From NCBI RefSeq assembly GCF_000007985.2, contig NC_002939.5:1050001-1082000 (forward strand): a stretch of DNA of 32,000 nt, given 5' to 3'. The position numbers and the translations under genes are program-made. The notes under the pieces were generated by a model that saw only the letters and a program-made list of their open reading frames with translations, had not been told where the DNA came from and did no database searches. This stretch comes from Geobacter sulfurreducens PCA (GTDB taxonomy: Bacteria > Desulfobacterota > Desulfuromonadia > Geobacterales > Geobacteraceae). Below, piece after piece: positions 1 through 21,163 of this stretch. How positions within the stretch are numbered: position 1 is the stretch's first letter; every line of letters starts with the position of its first letter.

Positions 1-810
1 CGGCTCGAGCCCGTTCACACCCTGGACGACATCGTCCTCCCGGCCCTCCAGATGGCCCAGTTGCGGGAGATCTGCGCCCAGGTCCGCTACCGGCACCTGG
101 TTTTCGGCCAGTGGGGATTCGACCGGAAGCTCTCCTCGGGCAAGGGGCTTACGGTTCTCTTTACGGGGCCTCCCGGCACGGGCAAGACCATGGCCGCCGC
201 GGTGATTGCCCGCGAACTGGGGTTGGAGCTCTACCGGATCGATCTCTCCCAGGTGGTGAGCAAGTACATCGGCGAGACGGAGAAAAACCTGGAGCGCATC
301 TTCGCCGAGGCGGAGACCGCCGGCGCCATCCTGTTCTTCGACGAGGCCGACGCCCTGTTCGGCAGGCGTTCCGAGGTGAAGGACGCCCACGACCGTTATG
401 CGAATATTGAAATCGGCTACCTGCTCCAGCGGATGGAGGAGTACAGCGGCATCTCCATTCTGGCCACGAATCTCCGCCAGAACCTGGACGAGGCCTTCAC
501 CCGCCGCATCCGGATCGTGGTGGAGTTCCCCTTTCCCGACGAGGAATACCGGGAAATGATCTGGCAGCGCATCTTCCCGCCGGAACTTCCCGTGGGGGAC
601 GATGTGGACCTGGGATTCCTGGCCCGCCGGTTCAGAATCTCCGGGGGGGATATCAGGAACGTGGCCCTGGGCGCGGTCTTTTTCGCGGCCGAGGAGGGGC
701 GGCCCCTGGCCATGGCGCACCTGGTCCGCGCCCTGGGCAGGGAGTTGCGCAAGACGGGAAAACCGTGCACCAGGGAGGAGTTCGGAGACTATCTGGAGAT
801 GCTGGCGTGA
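1..810 (+). CDS. AAA+ ATPase of the contractile injection system (Afp15/Pvc15-like), 5' end cut by the window edge
   Basis: The frame is open from nt 1 (RLEPVHTLDDIVLPALQ precedes the first Met at 52). Walker A GPPGTGKT, Walker B ILFFDEADALF, CDC48/FtsH-type AAA core. It lies directly upstream of the DUF4255 cap gene, as in eCIS loci. Confidence 0.9.
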   Translation, partial: RLEPVHTLDDIVLPALQMAQLREICAQVRYRHLVFGQWGFDRKLSSGKGLTVLFTGPPGTGKTMAAAVIARELGLELYRIDLSQVVSKYIGETEKNLERIFAEAETAGAILFFDEADALFGRRSEVKDAHDRYANIEIGYLLQRMEEYSGISILATNLRQNLDEAFTRRIRIVVEFPFPDEEYREMIWQRIFPPELPVGDDVDLGFLARRFRISGGDIRNVALGAVFFAAEEGRPLAMAHLVRALGRELRKTGKPCTREEFGDYLEMLA

Positions 811-823
811 CAGGGATGGAGCC

Positions 824-1420
824 ATGAGCGACTACACGGTGATTGCCGATATCGGGGCCACGCTGATCGGCCTGCTGCGGGAGAGCATGGGCGACCTGCT
901 GTCCGCCGACGCCATCGCGCTTCTCTCTCCGGCGGAGCTGGAAGGGCAGGACATCCGCCTGACCCTCTTCCTCTATGCCGTGAGCGAGAATCCGCACCTG
1001 AAGAACGCCCCGGCCCCGCCGGCTTCGCCGGGTATCCGCCGGGCCCCGCCGCTCCACCTGGACCTTTCCTACCTGCTCACGGCCCACGGCTCACGGCTCA
1101 TCACCGACCGGACCGAACGCTCCTTGGAGGAGCACCGGATCCTGGGGCGGGCCATGCGGGTACTCTACGATAACTCACTGCTGACGGGATCGGTCCTGAA
1201 GGGCGGTCTGGCCGGATCCACGGCCCAGTTCCGGGTGAATCTCCAACCCCTTGCCCTGGACGACCTGTCCAAGATATGGACTGCTCTGCCCAACAACGCC
1301 CTCAAGGCATCGGCAGGGTACCAGGTGACCCCGGTGGCCATTGATTCCACCCGGTCCACCGGCGGGAAACCCGTGGTGGAGAGGACCCTGGAGTACTACC
1401 AGAAAGGGGCCGGGTTATGA
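824..1420 (+). CDS. DUF4255 (Pvc16_N / Afp16-like) tail terminator-cap protein
   Basis: ATG at 824 inside ORF 602..1420. The N-terminus MSDYTVIADIGATLIGLLRESM... and LHLDLSYLLTAHG ... YQVTPVAIDS match my recollection of the DUF4255 family. The upstream part of the ORF overlaps the ATPase gene and is discarded. Confidence 0.8.
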   Translation: MSDYTVIADIGATLIGLLRESMGDLLSADAIALLSPAELEGQDIRLTLFLYAVSENPHLKNAPAPPASPGIRRAPPLHLDLSYLLTAHGSRLITDRTERSLEEHRILGRAMRVLYDNSLLTGSVLKGGLAGSTAQFRVNLQPLALDDLSKIWTALPNNALKASAGYQVTPVAIDSTRSTGGKPVVERTLEYYQKGAGL

Positions 1421-2265
1421 CCGAGGCAGTGATGCTCCAGCCGCCCGACCGGTCCGTGAGCCGCCTTTCCTTCGCGATGCGGCTGGTGGATGACTTCGCG
1501 CCGGAGCGGGAGCCTCCGGCCGGGGTAGCGGTGACGCTCACGGGAGGCGGGACCCAGGGCATTCGCAACCCCGGCGGGTGGCACCTCTTCATGGATCTGC
1601 CGCCGGGAACGTACCGGGTGAGTGCCCGGTCAGAGCTCTACCTGGCGGAGGAGAAGGAGATCGACACCGCGCTGCTGGATCCCGGCCTGCCGGTGGTGGA
1701 GCTGCTGCTTAAGCCGTCCGCTGCCTACCCGTTTCCACCCGGAACCACGCTGGTCCGTGGCGTGGTGAGGAACGAAGCGGGGCAGGACGTGCCGGATGCC
1801 CGGGTGGAGGCGGTTCCCTGGATGCCGGTGCCATCGGTGAAGGGGCGGGTGCGGCAGGGTGGCGCCCAGGCGGGCCAGCCGACCATCCGCCTTGAGCACC
1901 TGTCGGGAGGACTGGCCGCGGGCGACATGCTGCTGGTCAGGGATGGAGACCCCTCCCGCCAGGAGATCGTCCGGATCGCGGCGCCGCTGCCGTCCAACGC
2001 CTCGCAGCCGTTCACCCTGGCGGCGCCGCTCCGTTTCGGCCATGCCGCGGGCACCTCGGTCCACCTTCTGGCGGCTGCCGCGCCCTTCACCACCGCCACG
2101 GCCGGCACCGGGGAATTCGTTGTCTACCAGAGGAACGCATCCGCCCGGCTGTTCGTTATCAGGCTCAGTACGAGCGTAGCGGGATACCTGCCGGACGAGC
2201 GGGATCTGGAGATCGCCGAGGGTACGACCCAATCTGTGGGAGTGATCAGCCTGCACCAGCTCTGA
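1417..2265 (+). CDS. Hypothetical eCIS-associated protein (CarboxypepD_reg/PEGA-like beta-sandwich features)
   Basis: ATGA stop/start overlap with the cap gene at 1417-1420. PPGTYRVSARSELY..EEKEI resembles carboxypeptidase-regulatory-like folds. The C-terminal half weakly resembles the sheath insert repeat. Confidence 0.6.
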   Translation: MTEAVMLQPPDRSVSRLSFAMRLVDDFAPEREPPAGVAVTLTGGGTQGIRNPGGWHLFMDLPPGTYRVSARSELYLAEEKEIDTALLDPGLPVVELLLKPSAAYPFPPGTTLVRGVVRNEAGQDVPDARVEAVPWMPVPSVKGRVRQGGAQAGQPTIRLEHLSGGLAAGDMLLVRDGDPSRQEIVRIAAPLPSNASQPFTLAAPLRFGHAAGTSVHLLAAAAPFTTATAGTGEFVVYQRNASARLFVIRLSTSVAGYLPDERDLEIAEGTTQSVGVISLHQL

Positions 2266-2343
2266 TCCTGAATCCGGCAATGCTCAACTGCCGAATAGAG
2301 GCTGATTGATCATAGGGGAACACACTGAAAGGAGGAATACGCG

Positions 2344-4326
2344 ATGCCCGAATATCTGTCGCCCGGAGTGTACGTTGAGGAGTTCGAAATCGGCGCTAAG
2401 CCCATCGAGGGGGTGAGCACCAGCACGGCGGGCTTCCTGGGGGAAACGGAGCGGGGACCCACGGTGCCGCGGCTGGTCACCAGCTGGCTGGAGTACCAGC
2501 GGGTTTTCGGGAGCTACCTGGGATCGGACAAGTACCTTCCCTACACGGTCCAGGGGTTCTTTGACAACGGCGGGAAGCGCTGCTATGTGGGGCGGGTCGT
2601 CAAGGCGGGGGATGCGGCCGCCACGGCGGCCACCGTGAAACTTACGGCCGGCGCGGCCAACGCCCTCACCGTCACTGCCATCGGCGAAGGGGCCTGGGGC
2701 AACAGGGTGGCCGTGAAGGTGAGCCCCGGGAGCCTGTCGGGGTTCAGGCTGAGCGTCTATTACTGGAAATCAGCCCCCACCGCCCTGTTTGACCCGGACT
2801 TCGACCAGAAGGCGAACCCTCGCCCCACGGCGGTGGAGATCTACGACAACCTGTCGGTGGACGAGGCGTCTCCCGACTACTACGACAAGCGGGTGAACGC
2901 GGTTTCCAGCCTGGTCCGGCTCGGCAGGCTGGCCGGCGACACGGGGGGCGCCCCCGACGCCAAGGCAGGGCATATGGGTACGGCCCAGTCCGGTGCCGCT
3001 TCCACCATCACCCTGGCCAGCACCGCCTCGGCCACGGATGACGCCTACAACGGCATGCAGGTCTGGATCGTCGACAAGACCGGCAAGGGGCAGGTCCGCA
3101 CCATCTCCGACTACGTGGGCTCGACGCGGGTGGCCACGGTGAGCGCCGCTTGGACGACCCAGCCCGACAGCACGTCGGTTTACTACGTTTCGTCAGTTGC
3201 TTCGCTCGCCGGAGGGGGGGACGTGCTGGCCCAGCAGGGTACGGCCCAGGCCGGGGCCGCCTCCACCATCACCCTGGCCGCCGGCGCTTCGACCGTGAAC
3301 AATGCTTACAACGGCATGGCCGTCGAGATCCTTGCCGGCACCGGGCTGGGGCAGAAGCGGACAATCTCCGGGTACGTGGGCTCGACGCGGGTGGCCACGG
3401 TGAGCGCCGCCTGGACGACCCAGCCCGACGCCACGTCGGTCTACCGGATCACCCCGTCGCTCATCCTCTCCGACTACGAGCGGGGCGATACGGATTCCCC
3501 CGGCAACCGCAAGGGACTTACCGGATTCAAGGAGATCGACGACATCTCCCTCGTGTATGCGCCCAACGCCCAAGGGGTGGCTGGGCTGCCCGGTTCCCTC
3601 ATCACCCACTGCGAGAACCTCAAGGACCGGTTCGCCATCATTGACGCGGCCCAGGGCTCTACCGTCTCGAACCTCTCGCCCCGCGACACCAACGAATCCA
3701 AGTATGGCGCATTCTACTATCCGTGGCTCAAGGTCATCGACCCCGAGGCAGGGGTGCAGCGCCTGGTGCCGCCCGGAGGCCACGTGGCGGGGATCTACGC
3801 CCGCAGCGACACTGAGCGGGGTGTGCACAAGGCCCCGGCCAACGAGAAGGTGAACGGCGCCGTGGATCTGGAGTTCCCCATCACCAAGGGGGAGCAGGAC
3901 GTGCTGAACCCCCGCGGGGTCAACGTTATCCGTGCCTTCCCCGGCAGGGGGATCCGCGTCTGGGGCGCCCGCACCCTCTCCAGCGACCCGCTCTGGAAGT
4001 ACGTGAACGTCCGGCGACTCTTCATCTTCCTGGAGGAGTCCATCGACGAGGGGACCCAATGGGTGGTGTTCGAGCCCAATGACATCCCGCTCTGGGCCCG
4101 GGTCAGGCAGACCATCGTCCAGTTCCTGACCGGCGTATGGCGCACCGGCGCCCTGGCCGGAGCCACCCCGGAAGAGGCGTTTTTCGTCAAGTGCGACCGG
4201 ACCACCATGACCCAGGACGACATCGACAACGGCCGGCTGATCTGCGTGATCGGCGTGGCTCCGGTTAAGCCAGCGGAATTCGTGATTTTCCGCATCGCCC
4301 AGTGGACCGCCGGGGCCAAGGGGTAG
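2344..4326 (+). CDS. Contractile tail sheath protein (Afp2-4/Pvc2-like)
   Basis: Strong RBS AAAGGAGGA 8 nt upstream. N-terminus MPEYLSPGVYVEE and C-terminal GVNVIRAFPGRGIRVWGARTLS...LWKYVNVRRL are hallmark phage sheath motifs. 660 aa, with an internal duplicated insert. Confidence 0.93.
   Translation: MPEYLSPGVYVEEFEIGAKPIEGVSTSTAGFLGETERGPTVPRLVTSWLEYQRVFGSYLGSDKYLPYTVQGFFDNGGKRCYVGRVVKAGDAAATAATVKLTAGAANALTVTAIGEGAWGNRVAVKVSPGSLSGFRLSVYYWKSAPTALFDPDFDQKANPRPTAVEIYDNLSVDEASPDYYDKRVNAVSSLVRLGRLAGDTGGAPDAKAGHMGTAQSGAASTITLASTASATDDAYNGMQVWIVDKTGKGQVRTISDYVGSTRVATVSAAWTTQPDSTSVYYVSSVASLAGGGDVLAQQGTAQAGAASTITLAAGASTVNNAYNGMAVEILAGTGLGQKRTISGYVGSTRVATVSAAWTTQPDATSVYRITPSLILSDYERGDTDSPGNRKGLTGFKEIDDISLVYAPNAQGVAGLPGSLITHCENLKDRFAIIDAAQGSTVSNLSPRDTNESKYGAFYYPWLKVIDPEAGVQRLVPPGGHVAGIYARSDTERGVHKAPANEKVNGAVDLEFPITKGEQDVLNPRGVNVIRAFPGRGIRVWGARTLSSDPLWKYVNVRRLFIFLEESIDEGTQWVVFEPNDIPLWARVRQTIVQFLTGVWRTGALAGATPEEAFFVKCDRTTMTQDDIDNGRLICVIGVAPVKPAEFVIFRIAQWTAGAKG
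2977..3450 (+). repeat. In-frame tandem duplication (two 71-aa units, period 261 nt) inside the sheath gene
   Basis: Unit 1 is 2977-3189 and unit 2 is 3238-3450. By hand count, 53 of 71 aa are identical. There is a 38-nt exact DNA match (3112-3149 vs 3373-3410, tacgtgggctcgacgcgggtggccacggtgagcgccgc), while the centres of the units have diverged. Confidence 0.85.
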
Positions 4327-4366
4327 GGCGCCGCCGAACTAAGACTATCTCAAGGGGGATGACCAT

Positions 4367-4804
4367 ATGGCCGGCAGAAAAGATCCATACCGCAATTTCA
4401 GATTTCTCGTGGAGATCGACGGCATCGTTCAGGCCGGATTCAGCGAGGTGACCGTGCCCGATACCTCCACCGACGTGGTGGAGTACCGGGAGGGGAGCGA
4501 GGAGCCGCGCCTGCGCAAGCTCTCGGGACTCAACAAGTTCGGCAACGTGACCCTGAAATGGGGCACTACCGATTCGCTGGAGTTCTTCAACTGGCGCAAG
4601 CTCGTCATGCAGGGAAAGATGAAGGACGCACGCAAGAACATGGCCGTGATCCTCATGGACGAGGAGGGAAATCCTGCGGCACGGTGGGAGTTCGAGAACG
4701 CCTGGCCGAACAAGTACGATCCGGCGGACCTCAATGCCAAGGGGAACGACGTGGCCATCGAGAGCGTGGAGATCGTCCACGAGGGAATGAAGCGCGTGAG
4801 CTGA
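4367..4804 (+). CDS. Tail tube protein 1 (T4 gp19-like / Afp1-like)
   Basis: RBS AAGGGGGA. DPYRNFRFLVEIDGI.QAGFSEV...VVEYREG is the conserved phage tail tube (gp19-family) signature. Confidence 0.9.
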   Translation: MAGRKDPYRNFRFLVEIDGIVQAGFSEVTVPDTSTDVVEYREGSEEPRLRKLSGLNKFGNVTLKWGTTDSLEFFNWRKLVMQGKMKDARKNMAVILMDEEGNPAARWEFENAWPNKYDPADLNAKGNDVAIESVEIVHEGMKRVS

Positions 4805-4820
4805 TCAATGAGAAAGGTGG

Positions 4821-5189
4821 ATGACCATGGCGTTTCAGACCGAATTTGAATTTACCCTTCCCAAGGGGTACGTGGACGGCGAGGGGAACCTTCACCGTCA
4901 GGGGATCATGAGGCTCGCCACCGCGGCCGACGAGGTCCTCCCCCTGAAGGACCCCCGGGTCCAGCAGAACCCGGCCTACCTGACCGTGATCCTGCTCTCC
5001 CGGGTCATGGTCAAGCTGGGGAGCCTGCCGGAGGTGAATCCCCGCATCGTGGAAGGGCTCTTTGTTTCCGACCTGTCGTACCTGCAGGAGTTCTACCGGC
5101 AGATCAACGACGGCGGCGCGGCCCAGGTGAAGGCCGTCTGCCCACGCTGCGAGCACGCCTTCACCATGGAGCTCGCCCCGGGGGAATAA
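4821..5189 (+). CDS. gpE-like tail assembly chaperone (start may be the second ATG at 4827)
   Basis: It sits between tube and tape-measure-like genes. The pattern REPT-like RLATAADE...L..V.P.IVEGLFVSDLSYLQEFY resembles the P2 gpE / Mu gp41 chaperone family. C-terminal CPRCEH. SD AAGGTGG is better spaced for 4827. Confidence 0.6.
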   Translation: MTMAFQTEFEFTLPKGYVDGEGNLHRQGIMRLATAADEVLPLKDPRVQQNPAYLTVILLSRVMVKLGSLPEVNPRIVEGLFVSDLSYLQEFYRQINDGGAAQVKAVCPRCEHAFTMELAPGE

Positions 5190-5227
5190 CGGGCTACCCC
5201 CTCGATCGCATCTACGAGGAGGTAGCC
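5177..5227 (+). promoter_or_regulatory. Candidate -1 programmed ribosomal frameshift cassette (slippery heptamer plus stem-loop)
   Basis: Zero-frame codons are GCC CCG GGG GAA TAA. The heptamer C CCG GGG (5177-5183) fits X XXY YYZ. After an 8-nt spacer there is a hairpin: 5192-5198 pairs with 5221-5227 (7 bp), one mismatch, then 5200-5204 pairs with 5215-5219 (5 bp), with a 10-nt loop. Confidence 0.4.
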
Positions 5228-5365
5228 TTCATCGCCTATTACCTGCACTGGCCCCATGACGAGATCATGGGGATGGAGCATCGGGACCGGCGCCGGTGGT
5301 GCGAGGAAATATCGCGGATCAACCGGTCCGCCAACGCCGATGCCACGAGCATCGCTGATCTGTAG
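5186..5365 (+). CDS. Small conserved eCIS protein / -1 frame extension of the chaperone (no canonical start codon)
   Basis: The -1 frame reads (I)TGYPLDRIYEEVAFIAYYLHWPHDEIMGMEHRDRRRWCEEISRINRS... up to TAG at 5363-5365. It resembles a small protein I recall between tube genes of eCIS loci. There is no ATG/GTG/TTG upstream of the conserved part. The only start candidates are ATA at 5186 (overlapping the TAA as ATAA) or a frameshift fusion. Confidence 0.5.
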   Translation: MTGYPLDRIYEEVAFIAYYLHWPHDEIMGMEHRDRRRWCEEISRINRSANADATSIADL

Positions 5366-5418
5366 CGGAACGACGCGGGTCCCGGAGTCGCCGGCCGGCC
5401 CGCGGCGCGGGGAAGGAT

Positions 5419-5859
5419 ATGCCCATGGCGCTCGACAACAGAAAAGATCCCTACGGCGCCTTTCGCTTTCTGGTGGAACTGGAAGGGCTGGTGGTGGGCG
5501 GTTTCGCCGAGGTCTCCGGACTTCAGGCCGAAACCGAGGTGGAGGAGTACCGGGAAGGTGGGGTCAATGAGCATCCGCACAAACTGCGGAAGATCACCCG
5601 TTACCCCAACCTGGTGCTCAGGCGGGGGATCACCGACTGCCGGGTCCTCTGGGAATGGTACCGGGACGTGATCGCCGGTACGGTGTCCCGCCGGAATGGT
5701 GCGGTGATTCTTATGGACAGGGAGGGAAATCCCGCCTGGCGCATGGAGTTCTCCGGGGCCTATCCGGTCAAGTGGGAAGGGCCGGAACTGAAGGCCGACG
5801 GCAATGCCACGGCCATTGAGAAGGTGGAGCTGGTGCACAACGGGCTGAAGGTGGAGTAA
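5419..5859 (+). CDS. Tail tube protein 2 (gp19-like paralogue / Afp5-like)
   Basis: RBS GGAAGGA. DPYGAFRFLVELEGLVVGGFAEVSGL...VEEYREGG is paralogous to tube 1. Confidence 0.9.
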   Translation: MPMALDNRKDPYGAFRFLVELEGLVVGGFAEVSGLQAETEVEEYREGGVNEHPHKLRKITRYPNLVLRRGITDCRVLWEWYRDVIAGTVSRRNGAVILMDREGNPAWRMEFSGAYPVKWEGPELKADGNATAIEKVELVHNGLKVE

Positions 5860-5862
5860 CCC

Positions 5863-7053
5863 ATGACCCTTGCCGAGCGGATCACGGAAAGATGCAGCTG
5901 GCGGAGAGCGGCCGGCCGTCGCGGTTGCCCCGGTACGGTTTCGCTGCTTACACCCGAGCGGCTGATGGGCCGTTACCTGCGGGGGCCCATGACGCTTACG
6001 CCGGTGCCGCTGGTGCATCCGGGGCGGACCGGGCGCCTTGACCTGAGCCTGTCGCTCCGGTTCTTCTGGCAGACGAATGGTTCTCTGGTCATGGGACGAC
6101 CCACAGGAGAGCTGCCGGTTTCCAGTGTGTTGCGACACGGCGGAACAGCGATGGCGCCAGCGGGTCCGGTTGAACAGGGGCCGGGTGCATCGGCCGCCGG
6201 CAGGGGGAGTGATACGGCAGCCCGCTTTGTCCATTCTGCCGGCGGTCTGCCCCGTTGCCTGGACGGGGAGATACTACGCACCATCCTCGGCAGGTTTGAA
6301 GACGTGAGGGTACGGGATCTGGGGCCGGGACGGCGGGAAGATGGCCGGAACCACCGGCAAGATAGGGATTCATTCTCACGGGCGGCGATAGTGGGGATGG
6401 TTACCATGTCGACGTCCGGCTGGGGCAGGATTCTGCCGGCTCACCGTCGTGAACAGTCCGTAGGGGGGAACGTTTTCCCGCACCGGGCCGTCCGCATGAT
6501 GCGGCGTACACCCGCCGGAGTAGCCGCAACTCAGCCCCTGGGTGAAAAGAGCCACGCCAGTGGGGATCATCCGGCAGTCGTGTCGGGGCGGTCTTTCTCC
6601 GCCGGGCAGCGGTTGTCGGCGCCACGGACCCGGCTGATTGGCACGGTCCGGCCCCTCGGTGGCCTTGCTGCCATGGGAAAGCGCAGCGGCTCCGCAGGGG
6701 GGCCGGCAAGAGTCGGTACGGCCTCCCTGCCGGAGAGGGGGACGGTTGCCGGTTCAGCTGCCATGGATCAGCGCCGGCGGGGGATGGTGTCTCCGGTGCC
6801 CGCCGACGCTTTGGAGAAAGAACTTGTCCTGACCCACGCGATGGCCGGCCCCGTGAGCCGGTCGGCCCTTGTCTCCCGCCCTCCGGCAGCCGTGCCGGCT
6901 AACGCTGTGCCCTTTGCCGGGCCGGTGGCGGCGGAGACGGGGCGGGTGGCGCGGGCACCGGCTGCCGCAGTGGATGTGAATCGGCTGGCCGACGAGGTCT
7001 GCCGGGTGATCGAACGGAGACTCGTCACCGAACGGGAACGGCGGGGACGATGA
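5863..7053 (+). CDS. Putative tape-measure-like / tube-lumen protein (R/G/A/P-rich, predicted disordered)
   Basis: ATG lies 3 nt after the tube 2 stop, and the ORF ends 15 nt before the LysM gene. Position matches the P2-type order tube-chaperone-tape measure. Only the C-terminus VDVNRLADEVCRVIERRLVTERERRGR looks structured. Third-position codon usage is less GC-biased than in its neighbours. Confidence 0.5.
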   Translation: MTLAERITERCSWRRAAGRRGCPGTVSLLTPERLMGRYLRGPMTLTPVPLVHPGRTGRLDLSLSLRFFWQTNGSLVMGRPTGELPVSSVLRHGGTAMAPAGPVEQGPGASAAGRGSDTAARFVHSAGGLPRCLDGEILRTILGRFEDVRVRDLGPGRREDGRNHRQDRDSFSRAAIVGMVTMSTSGWGRILPAHRREQSVGGNVFPHRAVRMMRRTPAGVAATQPLGEKSHASGDHPAVVSGRSFSAGQRLSAPRTRLIGTVRPLGGLAAMGKRSGSAGGPARVGTASLPERGTVAGSAAMDQRRRGMVSPVPADALEKELVLTHAMAGPVSRSALVSRPPAAVPANAVPFAGPVAAETGRVARAPAAAVDVNRLADEVCRVIERRLVTERERRGR

Positions 7054-7068
7054 GGGGAGGTGCGGGGC

Positions 7069-7686
7069 ATGGCCCTTGAGAAGGCAAAGCTCGTGAACGC
7101 CGACACCGGCGAGGAGGTGGCGGTCCTGTTCAATCCCACCGAGTACGCGGTGGAAAAGGGGAACCAGTACGCGGAAATCGCCATCCCCGGGCTGGAGGCG
7201 CCGTTGCTCCAGTTCAGCCGGGGAACTGCCCGTACCCTGACCATGGATCTCTTTCTCGATACCTCTGAGACGGGGCAGGATGTGCGGGTTCACACCAAGC
7301 GGATCACCTCGTTCCTGGACATCGATCCCGAGACCCATGCCCCGCCCGTCTGCCGCTTCGTCTGGGGAGGCGGCGAGAGCTTCACCGGCGTGCTGGAGCG
7401 GGCCACCCAGCGGTTCACCATGTTTCTGGCCGACGGGACCCCCGTGCGGGCCACGGTGGGGGTGGCGCTGAAGGAGTTCCGGACCGGCCTCAACCGGGAA
7501 AAGCCGCTCCAGTCGCCGGACCGGACCAAAGTAAGAACCATGGGGGAGGGTGACAGTCTCTGGCTTCTGGCTGCCCGGGAATACGGGGACCCGGCCCAGT
7601 GGCGGTTCATCGCCCGGGAGAGCGGCATCGTCAATCCGCGGCGGGTGAAGGCCGGCACCGACCTGGTCATTCCCCCCATCGAGTGA
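7069..7686 (+). CDS. LysM-domain CIS tube-initiator / baseplate hub protein (Afp7-like)
   Basis: ATG at 7069 with GAGGGGAGG upstream (the track start at 7060 is a GTG). The N-terminal tube-like fold is followed by a C-terminal LysM: GDSLWLLAAREYGDPAQWRFIARESGIVNPRRVKAGTDLVIP. Confidence 0.85.
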   Translation: MALEKAKLVNADTGEEVAVLFNPTEYAVEKGNQYAEIAIPGLEAPLLQFSRGTARTLTMDLFLDTSETGQDVRVHTKRITSFLDIDPETHAPPVCRFVWGGGESFTGVLERATQRFTMFLADGTPVRATVGVALKEFRTGLNREKPLQSPDRTKVRTMGEGDSLWLLAAREYGDPAQWRFIARESGIVNPRRVKAGTDLVIPPIE

Positions 7687-7689
7687 GCC

Positions 7690-8778
7690 ATGGCCGATGA
7701 AACGATCAGTCTCGATTACTATGCGCCCCGCTTCCGGGTTGAGATCGACGGCGAGACGATCCCCCAGGACGGGATCGTGAGCGTGGAGGTGGACGAGACC
7801 CTCGATGCTCCGGCCATGGTGTCGCTGGCCTTCAACGAGACCCTCGACCCCCGCAGCCAGACCTTTGCCTGGCTCGATAACCCGAAGCTGGTGCCCGGTG
7901 CGGAGGTGAAGGTCTTCCTCGGCTATACGGGGCGGGCGGTGCCGGCTCCAAAACCCCTCTTCGAGGGGAGACTCCATACCCTGACCCCGGCGTTCCAGAA
8001 TTCGGGCGTCCCCTCGCTCATGGTGCAGGGGTATGACCATTCCCACGGTCTCCAGAAGGTCAAGAGCCACTTCTCCCGGACCAATGCCCGGGCCAGTGAC
8101 GCCGCCTCCGAGATCGCCCGGTTGAACGGCCTCGACGCCTCGGGGGTGGAGGCAACCGCTACGGTCCATCCGAGCATCCGGCAGGGGGAGGACGAGGTGG
8201 ACCTGGAGTTTCTGCGGCGCCTGGCGCGGGACTTGGGCTTCGAGGTGTTTGTCCGGGGCAAGGCCCTCATGTTCCGTACCCCGGCGGACGAGGAAACGGA
8301 ACTGCTCACCTTCCAGTGGGGCCGCAACCTCGTCAGCTTCACCCCACGCCTGTCCACCTCCGCCCAAGTGAGTGAGGTGCGGGTCAGGGGGTGGAATCCG
8401 GCCACCAAGGAGCGGATCGAGGGGAAGGCTACGGTTGCCGATCTGAAGGGGCTTGCCGGTGGCGTGAGCGGTGCCGAGCAGGCAGGGTCCGGGGGAGAGC
8501 CGGTGGTCCGCAGCATCGAGGACCGGCCCGTGTTTTCCCGGGAAGAGGCCGACGCCCTGGCCCGCGCCGAGCTCAACCGCCTCAATGACGGCTTCATCAC
8601 CGGCACGGGGGAGACCATCGGGATGCCGGAGCTCAGGCCGGGGATTACCGTGGCCATCCAGGGGATCGGCACGCGGTTCAGCGGCAGGTACTACGTGAAG
8701 GGGGCGCGGCACAGCCTGGGGGACTCGGGCTACCGGACCACTTTCGAAGTGAGGAGGAACGCCCTTGGGTCTCTATGA
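7690..8778 (+). CDS. Phage late control gene D (gpD / gp27-like) baseplate hub protein
   Basis: 362 aa. YAPRFRVEIDG...LGY...GYDHSH...LEFLRRLARDLGFEVFV...RYYV..ARHSL resembles the Phage_GPD family (N-terminal part of VgrG/Afp8). Confidence 0.85.
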   Translation: MADETISLDYYAPRFRVEIDGETIPQDGIVSVEVDETLDAPAMVSLAFNETLDPRSQTFAWLDNPKLVPGAEVKVFLGYTGRAVPAPKPLFEGRLHTLTPAFQNSGVPSLMVQGYDHSHGLQKVKSHFSRTNARASDAASEIARLNGLDASGVEATATVHPSIRQGEDEVDLEFLRRLARDLGFEVFVRGKALMFRTPADEETELLTFQWGRNLVSFTPRLSTSAQVSEVRVRGWNPATKERIEGKATVADLKGLAGGVSGAEQAGSGGEPVVRSIEDRPVFSREEADALARAELNRLNDGFITGTGETIGMPELRPGITVAIQGIGTRFSGRYYVKGARHSLGDSGYRTTFEVRRNALGSL

Positions 8779-9421
8779 TCTGCTCGACGCGGAAGGCAAG
8801 GACGACCAGAAGGGGAAATCACCGGGCGTAGCGGTGGGTGTCGTCGCCGACAACCAGGATCCGGAGGGGATGGGGCGGGTCAAGGTGCGGTTTCCCTGGA
8901 AGGACGATGCGGACGAGAGCACCTGGGCCCGGGTGGTAACCCCCATGGCCGGCAAGGGGCGCGGCCTCTGGTTTCTCCCCGAGGTGGGGGACGAGGTGCT
9001 CGTGGCCTTCGACCACGGCGACGTGCAGCATCCCTACGTGCTCGGCAGCCTCTGGAACGGCACCGATACCCCGCCGGGGGACAACGGCGACGGCAACAAC
9101 AATATCCGCAAGATCACCTCCCGCAGCGGCCACGAACTGGTCTTCGACGACACGTCCGGGGCGGAAAAGGTGGTGATCAGGACCAAGGCGGGCCACGCCA
9201 TCACCCTGGACGATGCGGGCGGCGGCGAGAAGATCGAGATCAAGGACAAGAGCGGTTCCAACAAGCTGGTGATCGATTCGGCCCAGAACAGCATCGGTAT
9301 CGAGAGCTCCATGAAGCTCACGATCAAGGGGCAGATGGTGGAGATCCAGTCGGACGCCAACATGACCCTCAAGGCCGGGGCCGTCATGACCATCCAGGGG
9401 TCGATGGTGAAGATCAACTGA
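8765..9421 (+). CDS. Spike protein, gp5/gpV OB-fold plus beta-helix (C-terminal part of VgrG/Afp8)
   Basis: TTG start 7 nt after a GAGGAGG RBS, with a 14-nt overlap of the gpD-like gene. GVVADNQDPEGMGRVKVRFPW...WARV..PMAG..RG.WFLPEVGDEVLVAFDHGD...PYVLGSLWN is the Phage_base_V/VgrG OB-fold. It is followed by repetitive beta-helix strands. Confidence 0.85.
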   Translation: MGLYDLLDAEGKDDQKGKSPGVAVGVVADNQDPEGMGRVKVRFPWKDDADESTWARVVTPMAGKGRGLWFLPEVGDEVLVAFDHGDVQHPYVLGSLWNGTDTPPGDNGDGNNNIRKITSRSGHELVFDDTSGAEKVVIRTKAGHAITLDDAGGGEKIEIKDKSGSNKLVIDSAQNSIGIESSMKLTIKGQMVEIQSDANMTLKAGAVMTIQGSMVKIN

Positions 9422-9451
9422 AATCCTTCGCGGTGTCGGGGGAGATGGGGC

Positions 9452-9602
9452 GGGAGGCGGCGGGGCTCCCGCTCCGGAAAAATCCAAGCGTCACCGGCGG
9501 TGGTCATGGAGCCGTCATCGCGGGTGCCAGTGCTTTCCCTGCGTAAGAGGATGTGGTGGTTTTCTGCGGGATTTTTCCTCCGCGGGAGCCCCGCCGCCTC
9601 CC
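9452..9602. repeat. 151-nt element bounded by 34-nt near-perfect inverted repeats (31/34) in the spike-PAAR intergenic region
   Basis: Arm 1 is 9452-9485 (gggaggcggcggggctcccgctccggaaaaatcc). Arm 2 is 9569-9602 (ggatttttcctccgcgggagccccgccgcctccc). They are reverse complements except for 3 central positions, and are separated by an 83-nt spacer. Confidence 0.7.
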
Positions 9603-9652
9603 TGGAACAAGAGGCGGCTGTTTGTTGGAAAATCAGTTTGAAGGAGATTTTC

Positions 9653-9949
9653 ATGCCGATGGCGGCACGGACAGGAGATATGACATCCCACGGCACTCCC
9701 CTGGGGCCGGGGCCCGGCTGCGCCACGGTGCTCATCGGCGGCATGCCGGCCTGGCGGGCGGGGAGCGATTTTCACGCCTGCCCGCTCATGAATCCGGGGC
9801 CGTCGCCCCACGTGGGGGGGACAGTGGCGGCGGGGAGCGCCACGGTTTTGATCGGCGGCCTGCCGGCGGCCCGGCAGGGGGATTCCATCGTGGAGTCGGG
9901 GCCGCCCAACAGCATTACCCTGGGGTGTCCCACGGTGATGATCGGATAG
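9653..9949 (+). CDS. PAAR-domain spike tip protein (Afp10-like)
   Basis: ATG at 9653 with RBS AAGGAG 7 nt upstream. MPMAARTGD..HG...GPG..TVLIGGMPA.R.GD...C...GP..H.GG.V..GS.TVLIGGLPAARQGD is a typical PAAR repeat architecture. The longer ORF from 9500 is rejected. Confidence 0.85.
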   Translation: MPMAARTGDMTSHGTPLGPGPGCATVLIGGMPAWRAGSDFHACPLMNPGPSPHVGGTVAAGSATVLIGGLPAARQGDSIVESGPPNSITLGCPTVMIG

Positions 9950-9959
9950 GGAGGGCGCA

Positions 9960-10361
9960 GTGACCAAGGCCAGAGAATTCCTGGGCACGGGATGGAAGTT
10001 TCCGGTGGCGGCGGGGGCGGATGGCGCCATGGTCCTCTCTTCGGCCGAAGAGGACATCGCCGAGTCGATTCGCATCATTCTCGGCACTGCCCGGGGAGAG
10101 CGGGTCATGCGCCCCGATTTCGGCTGCGGCATCCACGACCGCGTCTTCTCGGTGATCAACACCACCACCCTGGGACTGATCGAGAACGAGGTGAAGGAGG
10201 CCCTTATCCTGTGGGAACCCCGGATCGAGCTGTTGTCCGTGACCGCCTCACCCCGGGAGGCGGCCGAGGGAAGACTCCTGATCGATATCGAATACCGGGT
10301 GCGGAGCACCAACACCCGGTTCAACCTGGTGTACCCGTTCTATCTGAAGGAAAGCGCGTGA
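9960..10361 (+). CDS. GPW/gp25-family baseplate wedge protein (Afp9-like)
   Basis: GTG start after GGGAGGG. FLGTGWKFP....G.......EEDI.ESIRIILGT..GERVMRPDFG..I.D.VF matches the gp25 family. Confidence 0.9.
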   Translation: MTKAREFLGTGWKFPVAAGADGAMVLSSAEEDIAESIRIILGTARGERVMRPDFGCGIHDRVFSVINTTTLGLIENEVKEALILWEPRIELLSVTASPREAAEGRLLIDIEYRVRSTNTRFNLVYPFYLKESA

Positions 10362-10380
10362 CATCGAGGTGCGAACTGCC

Positions 10381-13300
10381 ATGAATGCCGATCTCCCCTT
10401 GATAGACGGCCGTACGGCCGCGGATGTGGTCGAGAAGATTCGCGCCACCGCGCCATTCTATGTGCCCGAGTGGAGCGGCGGTGTCGACGGCGATGCGGGA
10501 AGTGCCCTGACCGGCGTCTTCGGCGACATGGTGGTGGAGGTGCTCCAGCGGCTCAACCGTGTGCCCGAGCGCCATCTGGCCGCGTTTCTGGAAGTGCTGG
10601 GGTTGCGGCTCCTGCCGCCCCGGCCGGCCGAAACCGTGGTGGTCTTCACCCTGGCCAAGGATGCGGACCGAAGCGCCCTCGTCGCGTCCGGCACCCAGGT
10701 CATGGCGGAAAAGACTACGGACCACCCGGAACTCCTCTTCGAAACCGACGAGAACGTGCTGGCCGTCCCGAGCAGGATCACGGCCCTCTACAGCACCATC
10801 CCCGATACGGCGGGCGGGAGGGAGAAGGTCTTCGGCCACACGGAGGCGTGGACCGCGGGAAGCTCCTTTACGATCTTCCACGGCACCGAGAACCTCCAGG
10901 AGCATGCCCTCTATCTGCGGCAGACCGGGCTCTTCACCGTGCGGAGCGGCGTGGAGATCCACCTGTCCGGCGTGCCGCGGGCGCTGGCCGACCAGGTTGC
11001 CTGGAGCTACACCGATGCCGACGGCCGGGAGACGCTGTTCGGGGCGAGATTCGATGGTGCCGGCGGCACGCTCATTCTCTCCACCGGGGCAGGTCGGCCG
11101 GAACTGGGCCGGTGCGTGGTGAACGGCATCGACGGCATTTGGCTCAAGGGGGTGCCGAAGGTAGGTGCCGACGGCACGACTGCCCTGGCGCGGGTCAAGG
11201 ACGCCGTGCTCCGCACCGTGGTGGGGGTCGGCACCAGGTCGCTTCCCACCGCGGTGATTCACCCTGACGTGGCTTTTGCCGGCGATGTTCCCCAGGACCT
11301 CACCGTGACTGCCGGTGGCGATTTCATCCGGAACCTCCTCCCTTTCGGCGACAAGCCCATGCCACTGGCCGCCTTCCACCTGGCAAGCCGGGAGGTCTTC
11401 TCCAAGAGGGGGGCCAGGATTACCCTCCGCATTACCTGCGCCACGGACCTTGACGTGCCCATCGAGCGGGTCCAGGGGATCGGCGCCGTCTTCTCGGCCC
11501 GGCTCAGGGGAGCGGGCATTGCCACGGCCGGTGAACTCCTGTCCCGGTCCGACGCCCAGGTTGCCGGGATAATCCGGGCTCCCGGCAGCGCTCGCCCGGC
11601 TTCCTCCTACCTGCTCCGGGCCAGGAATATCCGCGAAGCCACGGCCAAGGCCTATTACGACAAGACCGGAGCGGTCAGCTACCGGTCAGGCCGTGCTGCC
11701 GCGCTGGGGCCGGGCCTGTCATGGGAGTACTGGAACGGGACCGGCTGGTGTGCCATCAGCGACGTGACCGACAGCACCGGCGGCCTCCTGGCCACCGGCG
11801 AGGTGACCTTCACCTGCCCCGCCGACATGGCGGAGGTGGAGGTGAGCGGCCAGCGGAACTGGTGGATCCGGGTCCGGCTCTCTTCCGGCGATTATGGCCG
11901 GGAGTTCGAGATCGTAAACGGCCAGGCCGTGGCGGCCGGCTTCACCCCGCCGCGCCTGGGGCGCATCACCCTCTCCTGGGACGGCACCGATCCCTCGGCC
12001 ATGGGTGAGCCCGATTCTATCCTGACGCGCAATAACCTGGAGTGGGACGACGGTCTTGCCGTGCTGCGCACGGGCGCGGTCTTCCGGCCGTTCCGCCCAC
12101 TGGCCGACCTGCGCCCCGCCTTCTACGCCGGCTTCGACCGCCCCCTGGCCAAGGGGCCCATCGGCCTCTACCTGGATCTGGCCGAAATCGATTATGCCCG
12201 CGACTTCAGGCCCAGGGTGCAGTGGGAAGTCTATGACGCCGGAGCGTGCGAGTGGTTGAGGCTCGATGCGGAGGACGGCACAGCCGGCCTCACCCGTGCC
12301 GGCATCGTCCGTGTCGTGGTGCCCGAGGGGGGCGTTCCGGCACCGCTCTTCGGCACGCGGCTTCACTGGCTCCGGGCGGTGCTCGTGGCAGGGGAGTACG
12401 CCCCCACGGCCCTCGGCGCCGGTCTTCCCTACCGGCTGCGCCGCGGCTACCTGAACATCCCCCGCATCATCGGCAGACCGGCCCACCTGAAGGGGAGCAT
12501 CCTCAATCCGGCCCGGTGGCGGTCGTGGCGGCAGCTTCCCTCCAACAGCCCCCCCATTGCCCGGGGCATCTACCTCAATGCCGCCCGGGCCCTGCAGCTC
12601 ACCTCCGTGAGGAACGAGCGGCCGGGATCGGGGAACGGGCTGCCGGACCAGAGTTTCACCCTTGCCCGGAAGCCGGTTTTCGACGACCAGGTCTGGGTCA
12701 ACGAGTTCGGGCTCATTTCCGCCGCAGAGCTGGATCGCCTCGCCGCAGACGCTCCCGGTCGGGTCAGCCGGGTGACTGACCGGGAGGGACGGGTGAGCGA
12801 AGTCTGGGTGCGGTGGGAAGGGCGCGACGACCTCCTGGCCTCGGGGCCGCTAGACCGGCACTACGGCATCGACCGGAGCAGTGGTCTCGTCTCCTTTGGC
12901 AACGGGAAAAGGGGCCGGGTGCTGCCTGCCGGAACGAACAACGTCCGGGTCAGCTACCGCACCGGCGGAGGTGCTGCCGGCAACCTCGGCTGGGGGGCGA
13001 TTGCCCGCATGCGGACCGGCATCCCCTTGGTGGACAAGGTCGTCAATCCCGGCCCCTGCGGAGGCGGGGTCGAGGGGGAGGATATCTCCGCCCTCTACCG
13101 GCGGGGCCCCCAGAGCCTGCGGCGCCGCGACCGGGCCGTGACCGTTGAGGACTACGAGGGCCTGATCAGGGAGCAGTTCCCCGGTATGGCCCTGGTCAAG
13201 TGCCTCCCCGTGTGCGATGACCGGGGCATGACCCGCACGGGATGGCTGACGGTGATCATCGTGCCGCGCGCGGCCGATGACCGGCCCATCCCCTCGGCGG

Positions 13301-13740
13301 CCCTGCGCCGGCGGGTGGAGGAGTTTGTCGCCGGTCACGGCGCCAACGTAGTGACCGCCCCCTGCCATGCCGTGGTGACCCGGCCGTCCTACGTGCGGGT
13401 GTCGGTTGATGCCGCCCTGGTGCCCCGCAGCCTCGACCAGGCCCCCGCCGTGGAGACGGCGGCCCTTGCCGCTCTCGGGCGGTTCCTCCATCCCCTGACC
13501 GGCGGGTGGGACGGCGGAGGGTGGCCCTTTGGCCGCCTGGTCTGCCATTCGGACCTCTACCGCTTGCTGGAGGAGATCGAAGGGGTTGATCGGGTGGCAA
13601 GCATGGCGGTAACGGCCGTCGATGAAATGGGACGTCGGATGGAGCTTGGCGAGGCGGATGAGTTGACGCGGCCGGTGGACCCCTATCTGCTCGTTTCCAG
13701 CGGAGACCATCGGGTCGCGGCACGGGCCGGCGACGTATAG
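10381..13740 (+). CDS. Large Baseplate_J-like baseplate protein (Afp11-like) with an inserted helix-hairpin-helix module
   Basis: ATG at 10381 with GAGGTG 10 nt upstream. The C-terminal third (RVSYRTGGGAAGN...VTVEDYEGLIREQFP...GWPFGR.V..SDLY..LE.IEGVD) is Baseplate_J-like. The insert at 11458-11660 contains VQGIGAVFSARLRGAGIATAGELL. Confidence 0.85.
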   Translation: MNADLPLIDGRTAADVVEKIRATAPFYVPEWSGGVDGDAGSALTGVFGDMVVEVLQRLNRVPERHLAAFLEVLGLRLLPPRPAETVVVFTLAKDADRSALVASGTQVMAEKTTDHPELLFETDENVLAVPSRITALYSTIPDTAGGREKVFGHTEAWTAGSSFTIFHGTENLQEHALYLRQTGLFTVRSGVEIHLSGVPRALADQVAWSYTDADGRETLFGARFDGAGGTLILSTGAGRPELGRCVVNGIDGIWLKGVPKVGADGTTALARVKDAVLRTVVGVGTRSLPTAVIHPDVAFAGDVPQDLTVTAGGDFIRNLLPFGDKPMPLAAFHLASREVFSKRGARITLRITCATDLDVPIERVQGIGAVFSARLRGAGIATAGELLSRSDAQVAGIIRAPGSARPASSYLLRARNIREATAKAYYDKTGAVSYRSGRAAALGPGLSWEYWNGTGWCAISDVTDSTGGLLATGEVTFTCPADMAEVEVSGQRNWWIRVRLSSGDYGREFEIVNGQAVAAGFTPPRLGRITLSWDGTDPSAMGEPDSILTRNNLEWDDGLAVLRTGAVFRPFRPLADLRPAFYAGFDRPLAKGPIGLYLDLAEIDYARDFRPRVQWEVYDAGACEWLRLDAEDGTAGLTRAGIVRVVVPEGGVPAPLFGTRLHWLRAVLVAGEYAPTALGAGLPYRLRRGYLNIPRIIGRPAHLKGSILNPARWRSWRQLPSNSPPIARGIYLNAARALQLTSVRNERPGSGNGLPDQSFTLARKPVFDDQVWVNEFGLISAAELDRLAADAPGRVSRVTDREGRVSEVWVRWEGRDDLLASGPLDRHYGIDRSSGLVSFGNGKRGRVLPAGTNNVRVSYRTGGGAAGNLGWGAIARMRTGIPLVDKVVNPGPCGGGVEGEDISALYRRGPQSLRRRDRAVTVEDYEGLIREQFPGMALVKCLPVCDDRGMTRTGWLTVIIVPRAADDRPIPSAALRRRVEEFVAGHGANVVTAPCHAVVTRPSYVRVSVDAALVPRSLDQAPAVETAALAALGRFLHPLTGGWDGGGWPFGRLVCHSDLYRLLEEIEGVDRVASMAVTAVDEMGRRMELGEADELTRPVDPYLLVSSGDHRVAARAGDV

Positions 13741-13763
13741 CACCATGCGGGAGTGAGAGCGTT

Positions 13764-15797: not shown

Positions 15798-15812
15798 CAC
15801 GGGAGACACGGC

Positions 15813-21092: not shown

Positions 21093-21163
21093 CCGGTCCG
21101 TCTCCGTTGTACTCTCCTATCCTGGGCTCTCCCCGCGGGAGCAACCAGTAGCCGGGGACATCC

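Follow-up and report, generated by a model that had tools for sequence, protein, structure and literature searches.

How is a conserved small protein made when its reading frame offers no start codon of its own? This question is raised by a short segment of the Geobacter sulfurreducens PCA chromosome, which lies in the stretch of 32,000 nucleotides (nt) analysed here (the window; positions 1,050,001 to 1,082,000 of the forward strand of NC_002939.5, assembly GCF_000007985.2). The segment belongs to a complete, co-oriented plus-strand gene cluster of the extracellular contractile injection system (eCIS) or phage-like protein-translocation structure (PLTS) type, and it holds two overlapping open reading frames (ORFs), the first resembling tail assembly chaperones and the second belonging to the Pfam family DUF6760. 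Comparison of this pair across bacteria and archaea makes it very probable that it is an eCIS/PLTS tail-assembly-chaperone gene expressed by a -1 frameshift of the lambda G/GT or P2 E/E+E' type. The features involved, in window coordinates, are as follows.

4827..5189, plus strand: tail-assembly-chaperone-like ORF in the 0 frame, 120 amino acids (aa) from ATG 4827 (122 aa from ATG 4821)
5177..5184, plus strand: putative slip site, with the heptamer C CCG GGG at 5177-5183 and the conserved G GGG G at 5180-5184
5183..5365, plus strand: DUF6760 frame, -1 relative to the chaperone ORF, reading GGA ATA ACG GGC TAC ... to TAG 5363-5365
5191..5228, plus strand: putative stimulatory RNA hairpin, 8 bp and 5 bp separated by a 1x1 mismatch and closed by a loop of 10 nt
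4827..5365, plus strand: predicted frameshift product of 179 aa, deduced from the chaperone ORF, slip site, hairpin and DUF6760 frame

The 0 frame ends in TTC ACC ATG GAG CTC GCC CCG GGG GAA TAA (stop TAA 5187-5189), its translation closing with ...CPRCEHAFTMELAPGE and the C-terminus ...ELAPGE. Translated from 5177, the -1 frame gives P G G I T G Y P L D R I Y E E V A F ... A D L (in full PGGITGYPLDRIYEEVAFIAYYLHWPHDEIMGMEHRDRRRWCEEISRINRSANADATSIADL, followed by the stop), and after a slip it would supply 60 codons, base 5183 being read twice. In the window this frame contains no ATG, GTG or TTG between its preceding stop, 330 nt upstream, and the GYPL motif, and its earliest ATG encodes the internal Met of ...EIMGM.... 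An earlier note on this DNA, made from the letters alone (the original prediction), had described such a start-less -1 frame running to TAG 5363-5365 behind an ORF that stops at 5187-5189, and reading and translation bear that layout out. The note had also taken the second frame to be conserved, without naming it; the frame matches DUF6760 (PF20546) at 60.7 bits, the cut-off being 27 (E 1.4e-16, residues 10-58) and is 98% identical to a Geobacter 'DUF6760 family protein' whose annotated upstream start is non-conserved. The chaperone ORF is likewise present as described, apart from its start: ATG 4827 (MAFQTEF...), and not 4821, is most likely the true one because homologues begin MAFQTEF, and a purine-rich GGTGG motif lies a few nt 5' of it.

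The chaperone ORF has about 8000 database homologues, most of them 119-122 aa long and ending x-G-E-stop, and proteins identical or 98-99% identical to it, with the same C-terminal end, occur in other assemblies (P0005, P0007, P0008). Several homologues carry the NCBI name 'phage tail assembly protein', and some the Joint Genome Institute (JGI) label 'FluMu protein gp41'. The window protein matches PHROG 508, 'tail assembly chaperone', at E 2e-4, and a match to the same family is found in all 20 aligned homologues (best E 1e-8). There is also a weak, consistent sequence similarity to Mu gp41 (PHROG 508 and the Pfam families Gp41_Mu, PF23746, and Phage_TAC_7, PF10109), with both Pfam families matching homologues below threshold only and Gp41_Mu doing so in 7 of the 20; unlike Mu gp41, the eCIS proteins, including that of the window, have a C-terminal CPxC zinc-ribbon-like motif. 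NCBIfam gave zero matches for the chaperone ORF or the -1 ORF, a chaperone profile compared by sequence with the Protein Data Bank (PDB) gave chance matches only, and tblastn of the fusion against 50,697 phage records returned zero matches. Because of the PHROG 508 matches and the gene position, the ORF can be linked to tail chaperones; the data allow it to be placed among them as a distant member specific to eCIS, and go no further. Some homologues were also seen to carry the chaperone domain duplicated in tandem within a single polypeptide, with ...SPGE at the end of each copy (P0001, P0003, P0004 and P0006, 249-260 aa; P0241-P0247), and P0006, P0063 and P0082 extend beyond ...GE as ...QATPSSASTRR, which is a 0-frame read-through of the GYPL region with no intervening stop.

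If the second frame is reached by frameshifting, the overlap and the signals for it should be visible in relatives. Loci from species-representative genomes were compared, the best 80 of about 600 genome loci; the 80 used for counts consist of 79 fetched loci with a DUF6760 match plus the window, one fetched locus (L066) having no such match. They represent Bacillota, Acidobacteriota, Nitrospirota, Chloroflexota, Desulfobacterota, Spirochaetia, Verrucomicrobiae, Betaproteobacteria and 21 archaea, the last being methanogens, anaerobic methanotrophic (ANME) archaea, Methanoperedens and one Halobacteria metagenome-assembled genome. DUF6760 lies in the -1 frame of the chaperone ORF at every locus (80/80), and it does so at ten further plasmid or chromid loci. 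The 0-frame stop falls 0-15 nt past a run of G in the 80-locus set and, at a Ralstonia plasmid locus, as much as 31 nt beyond the point where the DUF6760 frame starts; because the stop position varies while the run and a downstream hairpin stay fixed, the stop is not part of the signal.

The same comparison describes the place where a start codon would be sought. No ATG, GTG or TTG at all precedes GYPL in 32 of the 80 loci, and a start codon lies within 7 nt of the stop in only 22, none being near the stop in the other 58. The codon that would have to serve as start is ATA in 30 loci, ATG in 17, ATC in 7, GTA, GTT or GTC in 14, CTG, TTA, CTA or TTG in 9, ATT in 2 and CCT in 1; as judged from these alignments, this codon varies like one for an internal hydrophobic (I/V/L/M) residue. 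GTG or ATG codons further upstream, at -36/-45, were considered as real starts and rejected: they arise where the two conserved Cys codons, NNG/NNA TGY, are read in the -1 frame, and the N-termini that databases derive from them (MPPLRARLHHGARPGG..., MRCGRVFF..., MRVPFRGG...) are non-conserved. Two loci depart from the general layout. L066 has, at 3340-3400, a broken run (CGGGGCGGGG), a DUF6760 frame truncated after 14 codons and AT-rich sequence beyond, and it is probably a decayed locus; in L095 (a Kovacikia plasmid, in a record without annotation) both parts are in the same frame, with a stop 33 nt upstream separating them.

In the window, G GGG G is formed by the last base of Pro CCG, the Gly codon GGG and the first base of GAA, and an in-phase run of at least five G is present in 71 of the 80 loci. 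The Gly codon is GGG in 74 of 79 loci against 15.9 expected from local codon usage (z 16.5; as the loci are related by descent, this and the other z-scores given here overstate independence). The codon before it ends in G in 73 of 76 loci against 29.5 expected (z 10.8), and encodes 12 different amino acids (CCG, GCG, CAG, TTG, CTG, GTG, TCG, GAG, TGG and others). This wobble G points to a constraint at the nucleotide level, because it is not translated in the -1 frame under any model, and it would let tRNA-Gly re-pair one base back. The original prediction had proposed C CCG GGG at 5177-5183 as the slip site, and the heptamer does sit in X XXY YYZ phase in the window, but it is not what relatives conserve: among the 71 run loci, 18 have C CCG GGG, 22 have G GGG GGN and 35 have no canonical X XXY YYZ heptamer, whereas runs of at least five G start at codon position 3 in 66 of the 71. 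Read from the alignments, the conserved slip element is an in-phase NNG GGG G. At one locus from an uncultured member of the Verrucomicrobiae (L074, 3345-3370), the lambda-like heptamer G GGA AAA replaces the G run in the same phase, and the full GGCUACC/GGUAGCC hairpin is kept (7/7 and 5/5 pairs).

The hairpin is the second conserved element. Its stems in the window, 5191-5198/5221-5228 and 5200-5204/5215-5219, comprise 13 bp, a slightly larger extent than the 12 bp at 5192-5227 given by the original prediction, which had correctly recognised it as GC-rich and interrupted; it begins 7-8 nt beyond the heptamer and 4-5 nt beyond the GAA codon. The region 5184-5260 has a minimum free energy of -27.1 kcal/mol (z = -3.3 against dinucleotide shuffles, 0/200 being equally stable). 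Under a stricter null, in which the peptide is kept and synonymous codons are resampled from the window's own usage, 5184-5236 folds at -22.3 against -12.4 +/- 2.8 kcal/mol, and 4 of 5000 resamples are equally stable. When the 13 window pairs are scored over 79 distinct sequences, 88% of cells are paired, and the covariation score lies above all slid controls and is reached by 0/500 shuffles.

Codon usage in the stem also bears on whether the hairpin is selected. Val is encoded by GTA in 60 of 65 cases (13.2 expected), although GTA is the rarest Val codon in the window (16/345), Pro by CCC in 69 of 77 (16.9 expected), Ala by GCC in 70 of 79 (22.3 expected) and Gly by GGC in 64 of 70 (23.6 expected), whereas the four codons just 3' of the stem (Phe, Ile, Ala, Tyr) are used near background (z 0.4-2.6). 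Overlapping coding cannot explain the fixed stem codons, because the stem lies past the 0-frame stop in most loci, and simple shared ancestry is disfavoured because neighbouring codons vary at background level. Compensatory changes occur in L010, L015, L039 and L040, where TAT pairs with ATA or ATG, and more distant loci, taken from annotated plasmids and chromids, retain the run and have a hairpin at the same place that is built from different sequence, as in Streptomyces and Kitasatospora (e.g. GACGUACGCGA/UCGCGUACGUC) and in Burkholderia and Rhizobium (AUGAAGGCC/GGCCUUCAU). These patterns indicate that the hairpin is selected as RNA at synonymous sites; a search of Rfam (E <= 10) with 5000-5450 found no known RNA family. 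In the actinobacterial loci the hairpin is made by codons for T-Y-A pairing with those for A-Y-V, the Streptomyces and Kitasatospora plasmids (L087, L092, L093, L094) keep G GGG GAA TCN TGA, and a GTGA stop/start overlap is used as the start by the Prokaryotic Genome Annotation Pipeline (PGAP).

Run and hairpin, moreover, come and go together: 70 loci have both, 7 have neither and 3 are discordant (Fisher p 9e-8). Four of the seven loci with neither, three from Brevibacillus and one from Tumebacillus, have GGAGG and an ATG in an ATGA overlap, and by its sequence DUF6760 is clearly a separately initiated gene there. Orthologues with their own ATG and Shine-Dalgarno (SD) sequence and with neither heptamer nor hairpin had been named by the original prediction as the case that would speak against it; such orthologues do exist, in this small minority, and because both signals are lost in them they support a role for the signal rather than refute it. 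In-frame fusions without run and without hairpin are found in L084, where the two parts are joined by a 40-residue acidic linker, in L099/L100, which represent one 150-aa protein found on contigs of two sources, NCBI and ENA, and in L101, inside a 42-kb eCIS contig. Across the loci compared, run and hairpin are present when, and essentially only when, two frames need joining.

Another set of database fusions, about 175 aa long (P0011, P0010; L081/L082 at 6340-6400; L083 = P0010), has 8 G where 7 are usual, with the hairpin intact, and deleting one G restores the usual stop, which in L083 is TGA. Their junctions (...PVGGVVGYPLED in P0011 and ...GLGGVIGYPLDR in P0010) match the predicted frameshift junction, and the predicted pattern ...PGG-I-x-GYPL matches the junction of the in-frame versions. 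P0011 and P0010 could be homopolymer errors, population or phase variants, or complementary DNA of slipped transcripts. Further candidates for natural fusions (P0012, P0021, P0025, P0269, P0299, P0352 and P0372) look like frame errors and were set aside. The programmed -1 frameshift put forward in the original prediction is in this way supported by the frame relation at 80/80 loci, by conservation at synonymous sites, by the co-occurrence of run and hairpin and by the junction match, and the comparison of orthologous eCIS loci that it had called for, in which the -1 overlap, a slippery run and the hairpin are kept, has come out in favour of frameshifting.

In the mechanism proposed, most ribosomes would stop at TAA 5187 and release the 120-aa chaperone, while a fraction would slip back by one base when tRNA-Gly on GGG 5181-5183 re-pairs with GGG 5180-5182; in the window, tRNA-Pro on C CCG may slip in tandem with it. 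By resisting unwinding at the mRNA entrance, the hairpin at 5191-5228 would favour the slip, and slipped ribosomes would read on in the -1 frame to yield the 179-aa fusion, with a three-helix DUF6760 domain at its C-terminus. This product would consist of residues 1-119 from the 0 frame (through Gly GGG 5181-5183) and 60 residues from the -1 frame, joined as ...FTMELAPG-GITGYPLDR... (predicted junction sequence APGGITGYPLDR; tryptic junction peptide CEHAFTMELAPGGITGYPLDR). That slippage occurs is, like its efficiency, inferred. By analogy with phage systems, the N-terminal domain shared by both products may bind a tape-measure-like protein, and DUF6760 may take the role of the lambda T domain in docking or recruiting the tube or hub. 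We also lean, though only slightly, toward the wider proposal that one -1 signal, G GGG G plus hairpin, works on bacterial and archaeal ribosomes alike and has spread with eCIS clusters across domains. Among the archaea, run and hairpin are both present in 19 of the 21 loci, and 13 of these 19 have no start near the stop.

Could the same arrangement instead give two separate proteins? If ribosomes terminated at TAA 5187 and restarted at the overlapping ATA (ATAA), or at an ATG or GTG elsewhere, a separate DUF6760 protein of about 58 aa would result, and the hairpin would keep its initiation dependent on upstream translation. The ATG with an ATGA overlap that 17 of the 80 loci have at this codon, the GTGA of Streptomyces, an NCBI annotation that gives a Nostoc gene an ATA start with a 4-nt overlap, the ATG contained in the Burkholderia and Rhizobium hairpin, and the clear separate initiation in Brevibacillus and Tumebacillus all accord with such coupling. 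Reinitiation is nevertheless unlikely as the general explanation, since it gives no role to the wobble G of the preceding codon or to a phase-locked run, and since run and hairpin stay fixed while the stop moves. A canonical start is near the stop in barely more than a quarter of the loci, the supposed start codon evolves as an internal residue, the loci with SD and ATG are those that have lost run and hairpin, and the in-frame fusions show a single polypeptide as a natural form. The restart at ATA, which the original prediction had listed as its alternative, therefore fits the comparative data poorly. As to the G run serving as a Shine-Dalgarno sequence, it ends 1 nt before the ATG or ATA, which is too close, and this idea was rejected.

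The slip might also be made by RNA polymerase, which by adding one G in the run would let some mRNAs encode the fusion, with the same protein outcome. A homopolymer of 5-8 G is indeed the conserved element, and the fused ORF is exactly what the database variants with an additional G encode. The bacterial polymerase sites known to slip efficiently are roughly 9-nt A/T runs, however, and five G fall short of this; the run also keeps a fixed codon phase (66/71), which matters to ribosomes and not to polymerase, a hairpin conserved 5-8 nt downstream is a ribosomal arrangement, and L074 swaps the run for a ribosomal heptamer. Transcriptional slippage is, on these grounds, quite improbable. Least credible of all is that one gene has been broken in two, whether by a 1-nt error in sequencing or assembly or by a recent frameshift mutation: in-frame versions do exist in databases and homopolymer runs are error-prone, but the two-frame layout recurs at all 80 loci, including complete genomes of cultured strains (Paenibacillus, Methanosarcina, Mitsuaria), identical or near-identical proteins of 120-122 aa are called in other assemblies, and both frames are under purifying selection. 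A sequencing error at the G/C run, a possibility that the original prediction had allowed for, is excluded by the conserved layout in independent assemblies.

Several considerations weigh against programmed frameshifting. The support for it is entirely comparative; G GGG G is not established as a high-efficiency slip site, half of the loci are without a canonical tandem-slip heptamer, and the run is partly dual-coded, specifying Gly in the 0 frame and, after a slip, Gly in the -1 frame. An ATGA or GTGA stop-start overlap makes coupled reinitiation possible in 22 of the 80 loci, reinitiation is possible at the window's ATAA too, and DUF6760 can work as a separate protein in some lineages (the Brevibacillus type). 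P0011 and P0010 were discounted as independent proof of fusion, each being of the frameshift type but for an additional G. For a tape-measure-like partner there is a single candidate, by position alone: a 396-aa ORF at 5863..7053. In addition, hhalign comparisons of the chaperone alignment were not significant against Mu gp41 (E 0.35) or against P2 gpE; of the gpE-like chaperone named in the original prediction, the tail-chaperone link stands through PHROG 508 and gene position, while homology to P2 gpE or Mu gp41 is not demonstrable. Structure prediction adds little at the N-terminus: the AlphaFold2 model of the conceptual fusion (48-sequence alignment; mean predicted local distance difference test score, pLDDT, 65.6) shows a confident three-helix fold in the DUF6760 part only, the N-domain (pLDDT 50-66) is poorly modelled, and Foldseek of the model against the PDB gave zero matches at E <= 0.001. 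Because only the DUF6760 helices are confident and the Foldseek result is empty, no structural link to gpG/gpE or to the eCIS protein Cis6 can be drawn.

How does this locus compare with known systems? Tail-chaperone frameshifting is a hallmark of long-tailed phages, and the lambda gpG/gpGT pair and the conserved tail-chaperone frameshift of these phages were reportedly described by Xu, Hendrix and Duda in 2004. Like lambda G/GT, the pair comprises a small gene beside a tube gene and a start-less second ORF that overlaps it in the -1 frame, with a slip site a few codons before the stop and two predicted products with a common N-terminus, and in some relatives the two parts are fused or separate. 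Unlike lambda G/GT, it belongs not to a phage but to an eCIS cluster on a chromosome, in which an AAA ATPase and a Pvc16-type cap are encoded, its slip site is G GGG G where lambda has G GGA AAG, its C-terminal extension is of a different family, DUF6760, and it is separated from the putative tape-measure gene by a second tube gene. Its strongly conserved downstream hairpin sets it apart as well, as phage G/GT sites to our knowledge generally lack a defined stimulator. P2 gpE/gpE+E' (and the R-type pyocin equivalents) shares the contractile-tail context and the order of tube gene followed by chaperone pair, and the P2 record has a -1 frameshift annotated 21 nt ahead of the E stop; the slip site in P2, however, is T TTT TTG, and the P2 pair directly abuts the tape-measure gene T.

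The nearest parallel for the hairpin is found outside phages. Escherichia coli dnaX has the slip site A AAA AAG with a stable stem-loop a few nt downstream and an internal Shine-Dalgarno sequence that stimulates -1 frameshifting, and its shifted frame stops almost at once. The eCIS loci resemble dnaX in having a stable stem-loop, apparently selected as RNA, 5-9 nt downstream of the slip site, whereas their shifted frame would add a 60-residue domain that is predicted to fold. An SD-like motif (GGAGG/GAGGT) lies 13-20 nt 5' of the run, at the distance of the dnaX stimulator, in 48 of the 71 run loci, where it coincides with the coding of a conserved ...EVE...; in the window no GGAGG, GAGGT or AGGAG occurs within 24 nt 5' of the run.

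A small eCIS protein with which DUF6760 might be confused is the spike plug Cis6/Afp6/Pvc6/Alg6, a helical protein of about 55-60 aa encoded next to the tube genes and essential for assembly of the Photorhabdus virulence cassette (PVC) particle (PMC8894136, PMC12546770). DUF6760 is likewise small, helical and encoded beside eCIS tube genes. It precedes the second tube gene, however, whereas Cis6 follows it and Cis6 genes have their own starts, and phmmer of the DUF6760 sequence against all PDB chains (E <= 10) gave chance matches only (E >= 0.97), although structures of Cis6/Pvc6 particles are published. In studies of the Streptomyces coelicolor contractile injection system (CIS), sco4251, listed as of 'unknown function', is found in purified particles and a frameshift is unmentioned (particle data in PMC10020575); from gene order only, sco4251 is probably the chaperone orthologue. 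Full-text literature searches returned nothing on DUF6760, and searches on eCIS or CIS together with frameshifting and on Afp6/Pvc6/Cis6 turned up no description of this frameshift. The type of mechanism is well known from phages, and the conserved eCIS version with a G run and a selected hairpin appears to be undescribed.

Current annotation treats the pair as two genes. RefSeq gives the second an ATA start in Nostoc (L086, 4366-4536, on a plasmid) and a GTG start in Streptomyces, and by another route DUF6760 is extended upstream into the non-conserved -1 reading of the zinc-ribbon codons (P0121, Geobacter), so many DUF6760 entries probably carry wrong N-termini; Pfam, for its part, treats the second part as a stand-alone DUF. 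If frameshifting is the correct explanation, the N-termini of thousands of 'DUF6760 family protein' records are wrong and the real product is a fusion, and eCIS assembly depends on a chaperone pair made in a translationally set ratio, which would matter for reconstituting or engineering particles. Being compact and naturally cross-domain, the locus would also lend itself to testing -1 frameshifting on a G run, and would do so for archaea as well, where we know of few -1 cases. Should the cross-domain proposal hold as well, this would be the most widespread cellular (non-viral, non-insertion-sequence) -1 frameshift in archaea, and in lineage-II eCIS, the Streptomyces and methanogen/ANME systems among them, the chaperone together with the chaperone-DUF6760 fusion would be a lambda G/GT-like pair acting as a ratio-controlled assembly factor that has so far gone unrecognised.

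The cluster around the pair has Pfam matches that span 52-17822 (AAA, Pvc16_N, Phage_sheath_1, Phage_T4_gp19 twice, CIS_tube, a weak Phage_GPD, Phage_base_V, PAAR, GPW_gp25, Baseplate_J twice and Tail_P2_I), and its genes are arranged as follows.

52-810, plus strand: AAA ATPase
602-1420, plus strand: Pvc16_N cap
1417-2265, plus strand: CarboxypepD_reg protein
2344-4326, plus strand: sheath
4367..4804, plus strand: tube gene directly 5' of the pair (Pfam Phage_T4_gp19, E 2.9e-48)
4827-5365, plus strand: chaperone/DUF6760 pair
5419..5859, plus strand: second tube gene, directly 3' of the pair (Pfam Phage_T4_gp19, E 1.2e-45)
5863..7053, plus strand: Arg/Gly/Ala-rich ORF of 396 aa, with no Pfam, NCBIfam or PHROG match
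7060-7686, plus strand: CIS_tube/Afp7-like
7690-8778, plus strand: gpD-like hub
8765-9421, plus strand: gpV spike
9500-9949, plus strand: PAAR
9960-10361, plus strand: gp25
10369-15797, plus strand: two Baseplate_J proteins
15813-17822, plus strand: P2 gpI-like protein

The 396-aa ORF is probably disordered, with a helical-looking C-terminus (...VDVNRLADEVCRVIERRLVTERERRGR), and its equivalents in relatives differ in length, between 212 and more than 1000 aa. NHL repeats occur in the P2 gpI-like baseplate protein (15813-17822). Beyond it, the region 17944-24106 encodes a 628-aa protein with a C-terminal helix-hairpin-helix, a GT4 glycosyltransferase and a 980-aa ORF without family, which may be cargo or accessory genes of the cluster, and from about 24.6 kb housekeeping genes follow (fumarase, DnaB, an acyltransferase with hexapeptide repeats and an Acetyltransf_11 domain, and FabMG). 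At the other end of the cluster, the ORFs of the AAA ATPase (52-810) and Pvc16_N (602-1420) overlap by about 200 nt as listed; because the Pvc16_N match begins at residue 84, the true start of this gene is probably near 810-850, and the overlap an artefact of listing the longest ORF.

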